From a virus (taxonomy: Duplodnaviria > Heunggongvirae > Uroviricota > Caudoviricetes): DNA of 17,208 nucleotides. Within the stretch, counting starts at the first letter, position 1. The number at the start of each line of letters is the position of its first letter. Positions 2,691 through 16,908 of this stretch are shown here, piece after piece. The notes under the pieces were generated by a model. That model was not told the DNA's origin. It searched no databases and saw only the letters and a program-made list of their open reading frames with translations. The DNA lies in IMG/VR virus record IMGVR_UViG_2698536369_000010, one strand, 5' to 3'. Both the position numbers and the translations under genes were made by a program.

Positions 2691-2720
2691 ACAACAAAAA
2701 ACCCACCGCGAAGTGGGTTT
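2691..2720 (-). terminator. Candidate intrinsic terminator/attenuator hairpin just upstream of the tape measure RBS
   Basis: Minus strand reads AAACCCAC-TTCGCG-GTGGGTTT followed by TTTGTTGT: a perfect 8-bp inverted repeat with a 6-nt loop and a U-rich tail. Stem is only half G:C. Confidence 0.35.
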
Positions 2721-2840
2721 CAGGCGACATAATAGTAGATATAGCGATTACGAGGCCACGCAATGCTTTTCTCCAGGAGCATCATCGATTTAATTAAAGA
2801 CACCATCACATCTCTGTAATAGAGTGTACGTAATTAACAA

Positions 2841-4646: not shown

Positions 4647-5039
4647 CTAGAGCGCGCGATATGGAATTTGAAGATTAAGCTGGAACCAGCCATTCTTTTC
4701 GCCAACGGCTATTGAGGAAACAGCCTGGTAACTGAGACGATCGTCATCCTGAAACTCAAACAGTTCCCGCAATTTATCGGCTGTCTCAGTAATGAGTTTT
4801 GAACCAGAACCTGCGGGGACAAATAACTGAATAATGATTATCCCCGTGCGATAAACAACCGGCCCCGCGCCAATTTCATTAACTCCAGCCTGCCCGGGAA
4901 TATTACTTAACCGCGCCCAGATTAACTTACCGGAAGGATCGAACGTTGGCCCGTTCGGATACAATACGTCTTTTCCATCAATAATCGTCTGTGCCGTCAT
5001 TCTGGAAATAACCGTATTTCTGATTTCAGTAAACTTCAT
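4647..5039 (-). CDS. Putative tail terminator / tail-tube joining protein (130 aa)
   Basis: Last small gene before the major tail protein. Its ATG overlaps the upstream stop as ATGA (translational coupling). Confidence 0.45.
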   Translation of the reverse strand: MKFTEIRNTVISRMTAQTIIDGKDVLYPNGPTFDPSGKLIWARLSNIPGQAGVNEIGAGPVVYRTGIIIIQLFVPAGSGSKLITETADKLRELFEFQDDDRLSYQAVSSIAVGEKNGWFQLNLQIPYRAL

Positions 5040-7655: not shown

Positions 7656-8420
7656 TTAATCAACGATTGTGATACCGTCTTTCAATGCGTTTTGCTTACC
7701 TGCAACATCCAGTGCATCAAAAGCAGAGCGTTTCATCGTTTTCTGACCAATATCATGCTGTGTCGGACGGGAGCCGCCGCCATTGTTGCCACTGGCTTTC
7801 AGGATGTAGTCTTTCTGAGGGTAATTTTCGACAAGGAACTCCAGCGCCTCATCAAACTGCGCCAGTTCGCCAGGCTTCGCGCGGGAATAAATTTTGTTGC
7901 CGGAAGCGTCATAAGCAACGATCCTCCCTTCTTCCACTTTGAATGCCTGCCCGAAGCGGGCTTGTAATAAATCTGCCGGGATCGCAATTTTATCGGCAAT
8001 ATATTTTGAACCCGCAAAACTACCGCCAATCATAGAATCGTAAAGCTGCTTCTCCAGCATCTGAGAGCGTTGCTTTTCTTCATCTAATTGCTGCTGAAAA
8101 TTTTTCGTAATTTCTGCCTTAACCTGGTCAACCTGTCCCGCATCGAGCAGCTTTTTCTGGTCGATTTTTGACAGCATTTCCAGTGCCTCGATCGCCTTCT
8201 TCGGGTCTTCGATAGCGGCAAACTTAGCCAGTTTTTCCTCTGCAGCTTCTTTAGCCAGGCGATGATTTTTTGCCTCGCCATTAAGCTCTGTAATTTTTTT
8301 TGTCGCCAGCGGTGCATCGAAGCCAATTTCTTTACCATCGTCGTGCACATAAACTGGCAGGCCAGCAGTATCAATTTCTGCGTATTGTTTTCCGTTAATC
8401 TCGACCGTTTTCAGTTTCAT
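7656..8420 (-). CDS. Putative scaffolding protein (about 254 aa from ATG at 8420)
   Basis: Charged, helix-rich protein between the head morphogenesis and capsid genes; no prohead protease gene is present. The track ORF starts at a GTG (8492) that lies inside the upstream terminator hairpin, so the ATG at 8418-8420 (MKLKTVEING...) is preferred. Confidence 0.5.
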   Translation of the reverse strand: MKLKTVEINGKQYAEIDTAGLPVYVHDDGKEIGFDAPLATKKITELNGEAKNHRLAKEAAEEKLAKFAAIEDPKKAIEALEMLSKIDQKKLLDAGQVDQVKAEITKNFQQQLDEEKQRSQMLEKQLYDSMIGGSFAGSKYIADKIAIPADLLQARFGQAFKVEEGRIVAYDASGNKIYSRAKPGELAQFDEALEFLVENYPQKDYILKASGNNGGGSRPTQHDIGQKTMKRSAFDALDVAGKQNALKDGITIVD

Positions 8421-8477
8421 ATTAGTACCTGGTTTAAGTCTTCCGACAGTTACGCTGCTCACCATCCGGATCGCAGC

Positions 8478-8504
8478 AATAAAAAAGGCCACCCGAAGGT
8501 AGCC
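8478..8504 (-). terminator. Intrinsic terminator between the head morphogenesis gene and the scaffold gene
   Basis: Minus strand GGCTACC-TTCG-GGTGGCC-TTTTTTATTG: 7-bp stem with one G.U pair, UUCG tetraloop, U6 tract, about 20 nt after the upstream stop. Confidence 0.6.
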
Positions 8505-9640: not shown

Positions 9641-11027
9641 TGATTTCCATCAGCATTACACTCTGATTTTTTAATTCATCGATCACTTCCTCTGGACGGG
9701 AATCCTGATCGATAAATTTCAACGCCTGCAACACCCGAACCGCATCAATCTGACGTATATCACCGCCCTGACGCAATGACTGAACAGCCAGCGCGGAGGA
9801 TGAGTCAAACACCTGGGCAGATACATCCAGTTCAGTGCGCACATCCACATTGCCACCGCAACTCTCTCCGCTCCATTCCGCCATTATCTGGAGAATATTA
9901 TCGAGGGCATCTTCGAGGGAGTTCGCCATTGTATAAAGCGGCGAGTGTTCCTGCATCCGCTCTTCATTAGTCTGATCAACAGATTTGGTGGATGTATTTT
10001 CAGCCCGCAGAAGTTTAGCGCCGGCATGACGCATCTGATTTTCCAGCTTCTCAAGTGATGTTTCGCCAGATTCTATCGCTGCGCCACTATGTTCAACATA
10101 TTCGAGGCCATTTTTTGTTCTGTCCTCAAAAATCGTAGCCGTGGATGCACCAACCGTCAGTTCTTCATTCCTGTCCAGCCCGTAGGCCACCAGCAATGGA
10201 ACGCGGGCAACATGAAGAATATTGTCCTGCTCGCTCTGGCTTTGCCAGTGCTTGATATTCAGCAAGCCAAGATTAAGCAATGGCGGTGTACCACGCATAA
10301 ACCCTGTTTTCTTCGTATACAGTGTTACCAGAGGAATATCATCACGGCTGGTATTCCATGACTCATGAAGCATCCAGACAGATTCGCCATTAGTACCTTC
10401 GCTGCGTCGATAAATTTCTACTCGACGGGGCATAATATGGCGGATCTGCTCCACCTTCTTCTGCCCGAAATCATCACCATCAATAATGATGACCTCTTTT
10501 ATACGCAAATCAGTGAGAACAACTTTCCCTTTTTCAACTTTCGATTTCCATCCAATAACCTGGCGTGGATTCAGCATCGTAACGTACGGGCGACCACCGG
10601 CCGCGTTTTCATCGGCTTTTGTCCGAATCTCGTTCATATCCGTTCGTGGATAGTCCACCAGCGCATGTGCCACACCATACTGAAATGCGAGACTGAAAAA
10701 TTGCTGCGCCCACACATCCAGTCGGCTCCCCTCCATGTCGATATTTTCTGCATATTCCCTGATTTTTTCCGGCGTTTCCTCACTCAATACTGTCGGCTCT
10801 GCAAATATGCGCCCAATATTTTGTTTGATGCTTTCTTCATACACAGGAAGTAACGTAGCCACAGACAGGCGTTTTTTATAAGCGTCTTCATCTTCATTAG
10901 GCCATTTGGGGAGATAATTTTCCCCCTGCCTGCGCATTTCAAGCGTACCGCCCATCAATGCGTCGTTAATATCCCACGCCTCCAGCATATCGTTATAGTC
11001 GAGGTTGGGTGTTGATATATCAGCCAT
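9621..11027 (-). CDS. Portal protein (468 aa)
   Basis: About 470-aa acidic protein directly downstream of the large terminase and upstream of the F-like gene. Assignment is mainly positional. Confidence 0.7.
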   Translation of the reverse strand: MADISTPNLDYNDMLEAWDINDALMGGTLEMRRQGENYLPKWPNEDEDAYKKRLSVATLLPVYEESIKQNIGRIFAEPTVLSEETPEKIREYAENIDMEGSRLDVWAQQFFSLAFQYGVAHALVDYPRTDMNEIRTKADENAAGGRPYVTMLNPRQVIGWKSKVEKGKVVLTDLRIKEVIIIDGDDFGQKKVEQIRHIMPRRVEIYRRSEGTNGESVWMLHESWNTSRDDIPLVTLYTKKTGFMRGTPPLLNLGLLNIKHWQSQSEQDNILHVARVPLLVAYGLDRNEELTVGASTATIFEDRTKNGLEYVEHSGAAIESGETSLEKLENQMRHAGAKLLRAENTSTKSVDQTNEERMQEHSPLYTMANSLEDALDNILQIMAEWSGESCGGNVDVRTELDVSAQVFDSSSALAVQSLRQGGDIRQIDAVRVLQALKFIDQDSRPEEVIDELKNQSVMLMEINDANRE

Positions 11028-15329: not shown

Positions 15330-15368
15330 AATAAAACGCACCCCAGCAGCCAGTGCTACTGGGGGCGG
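15330..15368 (-). terminator. Intrinsic terminator downstream of trkG
   Basis: Minus strand CGC-CCCCAGTAGC-ACTG-GCTGCTGGGG-(U)GCG-TTTTATT: about 13-bp G:C-rich stem with one G.U and one bulge, then a U-tract. The plus-strand version has a C-A mismatch, favouring minus-strand function. Confidence 0.6.
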
Positions 15369-15450: not shown

Positions 15451-16908
15451 TTAGGAGCGCCAAAAAAAACCTGAAAACAATATAATAACAGGATAAATTT
15501 CAAGGCGACCAAGAATCATAGCTATGCACATTAAATATTTTGCAATGTCATTAAGCACTCCGAATGACGATGCAGTAGCCCCAAAACCTAATCCCATATT
15601 ATTAATACATGCAGCCACTGTTGCAAATGATGTAAGAAAATCATATCCCATACCATTTAACACCAGTATAAAAAACACCGTGAAGAGAGTATAAAGAAAA
15701 AAGAAACTCCATACAGACCTCATTACACGATCTGTAACTATCTTCCCTCCTACATTTACACTTAACAACGCTCTGGGATGAGAAAGTTGATTTATCTCGT
15801 GTTTGCTTTGTTTGAAAAGTATAAGAAATCGAAGTGACTTAATTCCACCACAGGTTGAACCGATACATCCCCCAAAGAAACTTGACAACAGCAAAAACAC
15901 TATCGTGTGCGTGGGCCAGTTTGCATAATCCTGCGTAGCTAAACCATTATCAGTGAGCATGGAGCTGGCAAGAAAAAACGAATGAATAAAACTTCCATGC
16001 AAGTCATACATACCTATATGCCAGACCTGGAAAGAGGTAACAATGATCACCCCTAAGGCTATTAACAGAAAGAAACGAAGTTCAATATCTCTGATTAAAG
16101 GTTTTATCGTTTTTCTGCTAATAACAATATACCAAAGAGTGAAGTTGAAAGCCGATAGCAGGGAAAAAGAACCAGCCACCAGCTCAACCAAATAGTTATT
16201 AAAATATCCGATACTCTCGCTATGAGTTGAGAAACCACCAAGCGAAACTGTGGAAATCCCGTGACAAATAGCATCAAACAAAGGCATTCCTGCAAGTCTA
16301 TAACAGACAATACAAGCAATACCTAATAAAGAATAAGTTATCCACAGTGTCCGTGACGTATCGGCCAGGCGGGGAGTGAGTTTGTCATCCTTAAATGGCC
16401 CCGGCATTTCTGACTGATAAAGCTTTGCACCACCAATACCCAATAATGGCAATACTGCAACCGCCAGAACAATAACTCCTAAACCACCTATAAAATTTAA
16501 CTGTGACCGATAGTACAAATATGCCCGAGGTAATGAACTAACATCATCAATTACAGTTGCTCCTGTTGTTGTTATTCCAGAAACCCCTTCAAACAGAGCA
16601 TCAATGAACGTTAAATTAAGTTCTGAGTCAATCCATAAAGGGAATGCACTAATAACAGAAAACAAAATCCAAAACATTACAATTATAATAAACCCATCAC
16701 GGGTACGTAATTGAATGCCAGATTTCTTAGTTGTATACCACGCTCCGCCACCAATGCAAAAAAATATAACGAAAGTTATAAAGAAAACGAACAGGCTTTT
16801 TTCTTTATAAAACAATGCTACAACCATTGGTGGCAACATTGAAAGACTATAGAGCCAAACCAGGAACCCACACATATGAGTAACAACTCTTACATGAGAT
16901 GTATTCAT
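15451..16908 (-). CDS. trkG: Trk-family potassium uptake membrane protein TrkG (485 aa from ATG at 16908)
   Basis: Multi-pass membrane protein with repeated pore-type segments; recognised as TrkG, which lies in the Rac prophage of E. coli K-12 next to the Rz/Rz1 genes. Clearly AT-rich compared with neighbours. An upstream in-frame TTG (16926) with an AAGGTGG SD would give 491 aa. Confidence 0.9.
   Translation of the reverse strand: MNTSHVRVVTHMCGFLVWLYSLSMLPPMVVALFYKEKSLFVFFITFVIFFCIGGGAWYTTKKSGIQLRTRDGFIIIVMFWILFSVISAFPLWIDSELNLTFIDALFEGVSGITTTGATVIDDVSSLPRAYLYYRSQLNFIGGLGVIVLAVAVLPLLGIGGAKLYQSEMPGPFKDDKLTPRLADTSRTLWITYSLLGIACIVCYRLAGMPLFDAICHGISTVSLGGFSTHSESIGYFNNYLVELVAGSFSLLSAFNFTLWYIVISRKTIKPLIRDIELRFFLLIALGVIIVTSFQVWHIGMYDLHGSFIHSFFLASSMLTDNGLATQDYANWPTHTIVFLLLSSFFGGCIGSTCGGIKSLRFLILFKQSKHEINQLSHPRALLSVNVGGKIVTDRVMRSVWSFFFLYTLFTVFFILVLNGMGYDFLTSFATVAACINNMGLGFGATASSFGVLNDIAKYLMCIAMILGRLEIYPVIILFSGFFWRS

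Follow-up and report, generated by a model that had tools for sequence, protein, structure and literature searches.

The window, by which we mean the whole stretch of 17,208 nucleotides that was analysed, comes from a Rac-type lambdoid siphophage or prophage and represents its late region. Every gene in it lies on the (-) strand, and Escherichia phage vB_EcoS-666R9 and its relatives are 99.9% identical to it. The element under study lies between a MuF-like head morphogenesis gene and a scaffold gene; it is a stem-loop with a U-tract, a putative intrinsic terminator that we call the terminator below. The features of the locus are the following.

13406-12312 (-), small terminase gene (PHROG)
12340-11030 (-), large terminase gene (PHROG)
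11027-9621 (-), portal gene (PHROG)
9640-8525 (-), MuF-like head morphogenesis or minor head protein gene, 371 aa (phrog_241, E = 1.5e-182)
8527-8525 (-), stop codon TAA of the MuF-like gene (ORF table)
8505-8478 (-), putative terminator, stem-loop and U-tract between the MuF-like and scaffold genes
8477-8454 (-), predicted leader hairpin 1 (folds, compensatory change, RNAalifold)
8447-8438 (-), predicted leader hairpin 2 (folds, covariation, match to covariance model R2)
8430-8427 (-), SD-like AGGU of the scaffold gene
8420-7656 (-), scaffold gene (DUF6651), 254 aa (phrog_784), start codon ATG at 8420
7649-7607 (-), leader of the capsid gene with two predicted GGAU-loop hairpins (folds; pair kept in relatives)
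7557-6418 (-), major capsid gene of the P22-coat type (phrog_283; start as in RefSeq)
6407-6388 (-), post-capsid terminator-like hairpin GGGGC-UUCG-GCCCC followed by AUUUUU (scan, folding)
Downstream of the post-capsid hairpin (-), connector and tail genes

The ORF table and the PHROG matches bear out an earlier statement, made in a first-pass annotation of this DNA, that the scaffold and capsid genes lie directly downstream of the hairpin. The hairpin starts 20 nt after the stop codon of the MuF-like gene, a distance that places it clear of the terminating ribosome, and 57 nt separate the end of the hairpin and U-tract from the scaffold ATG. Strong terminator-like hairpins are also found in the window at 2698-2721 (-) and 15341-15364 (-), one of them before the tape-measure ORF and the other after trkG.

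The 5' arm of the stem, AGGCUACC (8505-8498 (-)), pairs with the 3' arm, GGUGGCCU (8493-8486 (-)), across a UUCG loop at 8497-8494, giving eight pairs that include five G-C pairs, one G.U and a basal A-U and that end in a cUUCGg tetraloop. The U-tract, UUUUUAUU (8485-8478 (-)), is flush with the stem and consists of U at 8485-8481, A at 8480 and UU at 8479-8478; with the last stem base included, there are six consecutive U. The first-pass annotation had described a 7-bp stem with a UUCG loop and U6: the hairpin, the loop and the tract stand, and the stem count has to be raised by one. The hairpin alone is predicted to fold at -13.2 kcal/mol, and the 115-nt intergenic stretch is more stable than its shuffles (z = -2.2). 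The features by which intrinsic terminators are recognised, a G+C-rich stem with a short loop and a U-tract directly 3' of it on the transcribed strand, are thus all in place, and the site ranks second among the terminator-like sites of a window-wide scan. The number of such sites in the window, 23 against 14.9 +/- 4.6 in shuffles, is a weak excess; as the scan is barely above chance, the case for the terminator rests on its relatives and not on one sequence.

The position of the hairpin also bears on the reading of the downstream gene. The annotated GTG start of the scaffold ORF (8492-8490) sits within the 3' arm of the terminator stem, and the first-pass statement that this start is wrong has proved correct. 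All 71 of 71 distinct homologues begin with MKLK at the ATG, most of them have an in-frame stop 3-60 nt 5' of it (the closest relatives, in Klebsiella and Citrobacter, have theirs at 42-45 nt), the alignment to phrog_784 runs end to end if the ATG is taken as the start, and RefSeq carries the 765-nt ATG form under the name 'DUF6651 domain-containing protein'; homologue starts, upstream stops and RefSeq together rule out the GTG at 8492. The GTG form (837 nt, 'coat protein') occurs only in the ON4706xx GenBank phage records (L001, 9057-9893, which is ON470614 and its sisters). Some records of this type name the MuF-like gene 'NAD+--asparagine ADP-ribosyltransferase'. An AlphaFold model of the scaffold protein, with a pLDDT of 81, starts with a four-strand beta unit (residues 1-35), which is followed by three long helices (36-136) and, at the C-terminus, by an alpha/beta domain; a Foldseek search of this model against the PDB gave no match below E = 1, and the predicted fold appears to have no solved counterpart.

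The relatives comprised 74 prophage loci with a scaffold homologue, taken from one-per-species genomes, and several phage records. A T-run of at least four is present at the equivalent position in 66 of the 74 non-redundant relatives, and in 60 of these 66 the 30 nt 5' of the T-run fold at -8 kcal/mol or below, with a median of -13.4; among random windows from the same loci, 15% reach -8 kcal/mol and 0.9% reach that median. This test is anchored on the T-run and hence not circular. Altogether, a hairpin and a T-run occur at the matching spot in approximately 60 of the 74 relatives, from Enterobacterales to a Caulobacter phage, and phages of Gamma-, Beta- and Alphaproteobacteria keep the terminator at one position, with flanking proteins that are 45-75% identical. 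In the Klebsiella phages, whose flanking genes are ~70% identical, the hairpin is AGGCUGCC-UCCG-GGCGGCCU followed by UUUUUAUUGC, and one pair of the stem has changed from A-U in the window to G-C, a compensatory change. In remoter relatives, the stems are unrelated in sequence (CCUGC/GCAGG in Photorhabdus, CCCCGC/GCGGGG in Yersinia, GCACC/GGUGC in Acinetobacter; also GACCGCC/GGCGGU). Stems that differ and covary at a fixed position argue for selection of the element as a structure, and the original proposal of an intrinsic terminator is in this respect strengthened: all the sequence features are present, and the structure appears to be under selection across the relatives.

The element is also widespread. 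A scan of IMG/VR with a strict pattern of T-run and leader matched at least 120 contigs; among the matches listed, 110 contigs (35 distinct sequences) have a hairpin of at least 5 bp before the T-run, and of the 113 listed contigs that extend far enough downstream, 110 have a scaffold-like ORF directly after it. Among complete E. coli genomes, 759 of 5426 (14%) contain the stretch, mostly with an identity of at least 99%. In the GenBank record of Escherichia phage HK639 (HM208537), the homologous element at 4901-4922, between the MuF-like gene and the scaffold homologue, is labelled 'terminator' and is one of three terminators that the authors of the record annotated in the late operon. The terminator is present in Caulobacter phage DMCA. 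In seven to eight relatives, the leader comes without a terminator; the hosts of these are GC-rich, and they comprise loci of Bordetella, Dokdonella, Afipia and Rubritepida as well as a Synechococcus phage.

What follows the terminator is conserved as well, from Enterobacterales to Caulobacter and Synechococcus phages, and the coupling of the terminator to a conserved, structured leader was overlooked in the first-pass annotation. In every relative, a motif AU(G/U)CCUG begins 2-4 nt past the U-tract and is followed by two to three short hairpins, the loops of which are mostly GGAU, some GGAA and rarely GGAC, with C-G as the usual closing pair, and then by the SD and the AUG. In the window, hairpin 1 has an outer stem GCUGC/GCAGC and an inner part CC-GGAU-GG with the loop at 8467-8464, and hairpin 2 is GUC-GGAA-GAC; the third hairpin is missing in the subgroup of Escherichia, Klebsiella and Citrobacter. 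Hairpin 1 shows a compensatory change from U-A to C-G in the Klebsiella phages. In 73 non-redundant leaders, GGAW is flanked by at least three complementary pairs in 149 of 198 occurrences (75%), compared with 6.1% elsewhere in the same loci, and RNAalifold predicts three hairpins from 34 leaders, with double compensatory changes in nine of ten pairs. In a count anchored on the loops, 88% of the cells are paired, compared with 54% when sequences are shuffled and 31-47% when partners are slid; the three inner pairs are pre-selected in this count, and its informative parts are pairs 4 and 5 and the slide control. That the structure belongs to the sense strand is shown by its G.U pairs.

We used a covariance model of the leader, R2, in preference to an automatic consensus, R1, which held only four pairs and was dropped. 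R2 finds the copy of the window (8418-8486) at 35.5 bits (E = 1.7e-5) and matches the capsid leader weakly. Among 151 Enterobacteriaceae genomes, it gives five matches, each directly 5' of a scaffold homologue and each preceded by a terminator, the stems of which are all different. The capsid leader of the window has GGAU hairpins at 7649-7624 (11-bp stem) and 7620-7607 (5-bp stem), and 19 of the 27 long scaffold-capsid spacers of the relatives carry such a pair, mostly without a terminator; in about a third of the relatives, two more hairpins of this kind stand before the capsid gene. A 4-bp hairpin, UGAU-GGAA-AUCA, lies in the overlap of the portal and MuF-like genes, immediately 5' of the MuF start codon (9641-9652 (-)); it may be due to chance or be a weak copy of the GGAW-loop motif. 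A search of Rfam 15 found nothing relevant, either in the window (E up to 10) or in ten relatives (E up to 1), nor did literature searches on the motif, on DUF6651, on transcription in HK639 or on CsrA and phage capsids. Judged by its covariation, the GGAU leader is a selected RNA structure, and it is apparently undescribed in public resources.

The leader has a direct consequence for how the genes behind it can be expressed. A consensus scan found no promoter-like site between 8486 and 8420, and the ~57-65 nt from the U-tract to the ATG are filled by hairpins kept via compensatory changes; the space being taken up by covarying RNA, there is no room for a promoter between the terminator and the scaffold gene, and we reject such a promoter as the source of scaffold transcripts. 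As the stretch from the terminator to the ATG is conserved RNA structure, it is presumably transcribed from upstream, and with a transcribed stretch and no promoter, expression of the scaffold and capsid genes would need read-through of the hairpin, just as had been argued from the gene order at first pass.

A module that could provide for this read-through is present in near-identical genomes. Phage ON470614, 99.9% identical to the window, has a gene annotated 'antitermination protein Q' (16207-16749), outside the window; its product scores 357 bits against DUF1133 and 27.4 bits against Phage_antitermQ, the latter narrowly over the Pfam cut-off of 26. The order in ON470614 is Q, an ORF, holin/endolysin/Rz, trkG, a ParB-like gene and the packaging genes, and in the genome nearest to the window (G001) a distance of 12 kb separates the Q-family gene from the leader downstream of it, both being on the same strand. 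By pattern match only, a promoter-like site, TTGGCT-18-TATATT (16684-16713, from a consensus scan), overlaps the end of the Q gene of ON470614, and a 10-bp terminator (16830-16855) lies ~120 nt past it; more terminators on the sense strand are found before the holin gene and after trkG. With at least six terminator-like signals in the late operon, the many internal terminators fit a phage that uses processive antitermination. A DUF1133-type Q is absent from eight of the 12 genomes or records examined, HK639 among them, and the terminator is equally conserved there. This Q is thus not the general answer, and in relatives that lack it, other antiterminators or leaky termination must serve. In the literature, we found no published termination data for this element.

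The relatives also show what the terminator may be needed for. Of 77 loci, 64 have a MuF homologue upstream of the scaffold gene, and between the end of this homologue and the scaffold ATG there are 105 nt to ~1.5 kb, depending on the relative. The extra DNA at the junction (0.1-1.4 kb, with up to 1.5 kb inserted in some relatives) carries small ORFs, always 5' of the terminator: Klebsiella phage 5 has a 79-aa ORF and a duplicated half-terminator (L004, 3226-3700), and HK639 has a hydrophobic ORF of 38 aa (L079, 4780-4900). The junction of the MuF-like and scaffold genes is an insertion hot spot, and in every case with inserted DNA the terminator adjoins the scaffold leader, not the MuF gene. 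Its position fits that of an insulator on the 3' side of cargo genes ('morons'), and that it stays with the leader despite the insertions suggests that it is placed to stop transcription leaving these genes.

Taken together, we consider it probable that the hairpin and U-tract are a genuine Rho-independent terminator that insulates the scaffold-capsid module and is overridden late in infection by a Q-modified polymerase. The terminator would be a transcriptional boundary within the late operon, with the packaging and minor-head genes, and any cargo, on one side and the scaffold-capsid module on the other. A polymerase that has not been made terminator-resistant would stop there, whether it came from the promoter of the trkG cargo, from morons that relatives carry at the junction or from spurious initiation in the lysogen, and the two most abundant head proteins would thereby be silent outside the late phase. 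After induction, a Q-family antiterminator would modify the polymerase at the late promoter, this and the other internal terminators would be read through, and scaffold and capsid would then be expressed from one long transcript. Termination at the site, its Q-dependent override and the insulating role are what we infer from sequence comparison.

It speaks against insulation that a terminator right upstream of the most-needed genes is paradoxical unless read-through is very efficient, and the fixed spacing of 2-4 nt to the leader means that the hairpin may also work at the RNA level. Rather than mainly stopping polymerase, it could shield the 3' end of the mRNA upstream once the U-rich linker has been cleaved, and the leader and the post-capsid hairpin (6407-6394) would cap a scaffold-capsid mRNA of high stability; more scaffold and capsid would then be made relative to portal and terminase. 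The single-stranded U6AU linker between structured blocks resembles what we take to be a target of RNase E, and an RNA-level role is the only one left to the hairpin in the late phase if the late polymerase ignores terminators. The terminator at 8505-8478 and the post-capsid hairpin at 6407-6388 bracket precisely the two high-copy genes, scaffold and capsid; the post-capsid hairpin, and with it the bracket, is conserved in the Klebsiella phages, and a similar stem-loop after the coat gene, common to HK97 and lambda, stands in the P22 record (BK000583, stem_loop 6102..6119, noted 'similar in location to stem-loops in HK97 and lambda'). A stabiliser needs no flush U-tract, however, and yet the T-run is kept in 66 of the 74 relatives, the signature of selection for termination. 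We regard this RNA-level role, the main rival reading, as rather unlikely to be the chief one; it is compatible with the terminator, and both may coexist.

The constant 2-4 nt between U-tract and hairpin 1 across classes, together with the way in which the terminator tracks the leader and not the MuF gene when DNA is inserted, would also be expected if hairpin and U-tract were the 5' module of the GGAU leader, the whole forming one composite regulatory RNA for the factor that would read the GGAU loops and not an independent terminator. In some relatives (L032 and L056), a hairpin and T-run followed by GGAU hairpins are seen before the capsid gene, too. The two parts do come separately, however, since the 19 capsid leaders with GGAU hairpins mostly lack a terminator and seven to eight scaffold leaders of GC-rich hosts lack one, and termination is decided before the leader is transcribed; a composite RNA of this kind seems improbable to us. 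There is finally the chance that the hairpin is the leftover terminator of a lost cargo gene, or fortuitous, and has no role in the phage. The junction being an insertion hot spot, the duplicated half-terminator beside the inserted ORF of Klebsiella phage 5 and a count of terminator-like sites that barely exceeds shuffles across the window are all in keeping with this, but one position held with covarying stems in phages of Gamma-, Beta- and Alphaproteobacteria, and presence in 759 of 5426 complete E. coli genomes, mostly at an identity of at least 99%, make it a very improbable explanation. An insulating terminator, read through late, thus remains our preferred reading.

The leader raises a further question, namely what might read its loops. 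Known targets and sponges of CsrA/RsmA include the hcnA leader, 'CACGGAUG', and the 'CAGGAUG' repeats of CsrB. Like them, the leader shows GGAUG or GGAAG in two to three short hairpins, the last of which often abuts or contains the SD in relatives; in contrast to them, its loops are of four nucleotides closed by C-G and not ANGGAN hexaloops. In leaders of the Acinetobacter type, the last GGAW loop is at SD distance, whereas in the window the SD lies outside the hairpins. Among 16 host genomes with the leader, a six-frame search that included the prophages found CsrA (PF02599) in four and not in the other 12; none of the Alpha- and Betaproteobacterial hosts had it. We reject host CsrA as the general reader on this ground, and it is unlikely to be the general partner of the leader. 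A resemblance of the scaffold N-terminus to CsrA, noticed by eye as an I-G-x-D-A-P match, was also rejected: hhalign gave it a probability of 0.4%, a profile search against PDB sequences found no CsrA match, and there was no Pfam match. More generally, no RNA-binding fold was detected in the DUF6651 scaffold by profile search, hhalign or AlphaFold and Foldseek.

In the Microcystis cyanophage Me-ZS1 (L082, 2400-2500), the three hairpins are kept with loops GUGAU, GCGAU and GUGAA (GYGAW) and not GGAU, which hints at either a co-evolving phage-encoded partner or pairing with the 3' tail of 16S rRNA. The GUGAU of Me-ZS1 is complementary to AUCAC in that tail. No gene other than the scaffold gene is linked to the leader in all cases. 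A tentative proposal, which we hold to be nearly as likely as not, is that the terminator marks the 5' edge of a cis-regulatory RNA cassette, widespread and so far undescribed, that belongs to a large phage head module and in which the GGAU/GGAA loops would serve as operators for some factor that is not CsrA. The cassette would consist of a hairpin with U6AU and then two to three hairpins of 3-6 bp with near-invariant GGAU/GGAA tetraloops, before the DUF6651 scaffold gene. As a hypothesis, the most economical candidate for the reader would be the free scaffold protein, by analogy with P22, in which the scaffold is autoregulated; such control, at the level of translation, would be coupled to assembly. 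An alternative candidate is the 30S subunit.

Terminators inside lambdoid late operons are already known, the homologue is annotated in HK639 and the start codon is already right in RefSeq. The terminator itself therefore adds little that is new, being ordinary for lambda-like phages that override internal stops by antitermination, and the start codon is corrected for some GenBank phage records. Its value is rather that of a landmark, which marks the scaffold-capsid pair as what would be a separately insulated unit of a head module that 14% of complete E. coli genomes carry and that also occurs in phages of many other proteobacterial hosts, and which points to an uncatalogued, strongly covarying RNA before the genes of the two most abundant head proteins. 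If this leader is indeed an operator, it would make testable how tailed phages match the synthesis of scaffold and coat to assembly.

Among known systems, the closest parallel to such control comes from P22, the scaffolding protein of which was shown genetically to regulate its own synthesis post-transcriptionally (Casjens & Adams 1985; Wyckoff & Casjens 1985, as cited in PMC5529062). The shared setting is a scaffold gene beside a P22-type coat gene, and regulation of this kind would need an operator-like leader. To our knowledge, no operator has ever been found in P22. The P22 scaffold is outside the DUF6651 family, and a search for a P22 counterpart of the leader was negative: portal and scaffold genes (1 and 8) are only 13 nt apart, and there is likewise no counterpart of the terminator upstream of the scaffold. 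The stem-loop that P22, HK97 and lambda share after the major capsid gene, on the other hand, has an equivalent of the same kind in the window, at 6407-6394.

With the pR'-qut-tR' region of lambda and with HK639, the phage type of the window has in common a canonical hairpin and U-tract inside a long late operon. As for lambda pR'/tR', a Q-family gene lies upstream, followed by pattern-match candidates for a promoter and for a terminator that would give a short transcript. It differs from lambda in that its Q is of the DUF1133 type and barely passes the Pfam model of Q, and in that the terminator is also conserved in relatives without such a Q. Lambdoid late operons carry terminators at moron boundaries, as reported from genome comparisons of HK97 and HK022. 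The junction studied here is similar, with small ORFs inserted in relatives and the terminator 3' of them, but the terminator of the window differs from those at moron boundaries in being present and conserved even where no cargo gene has been inserted.
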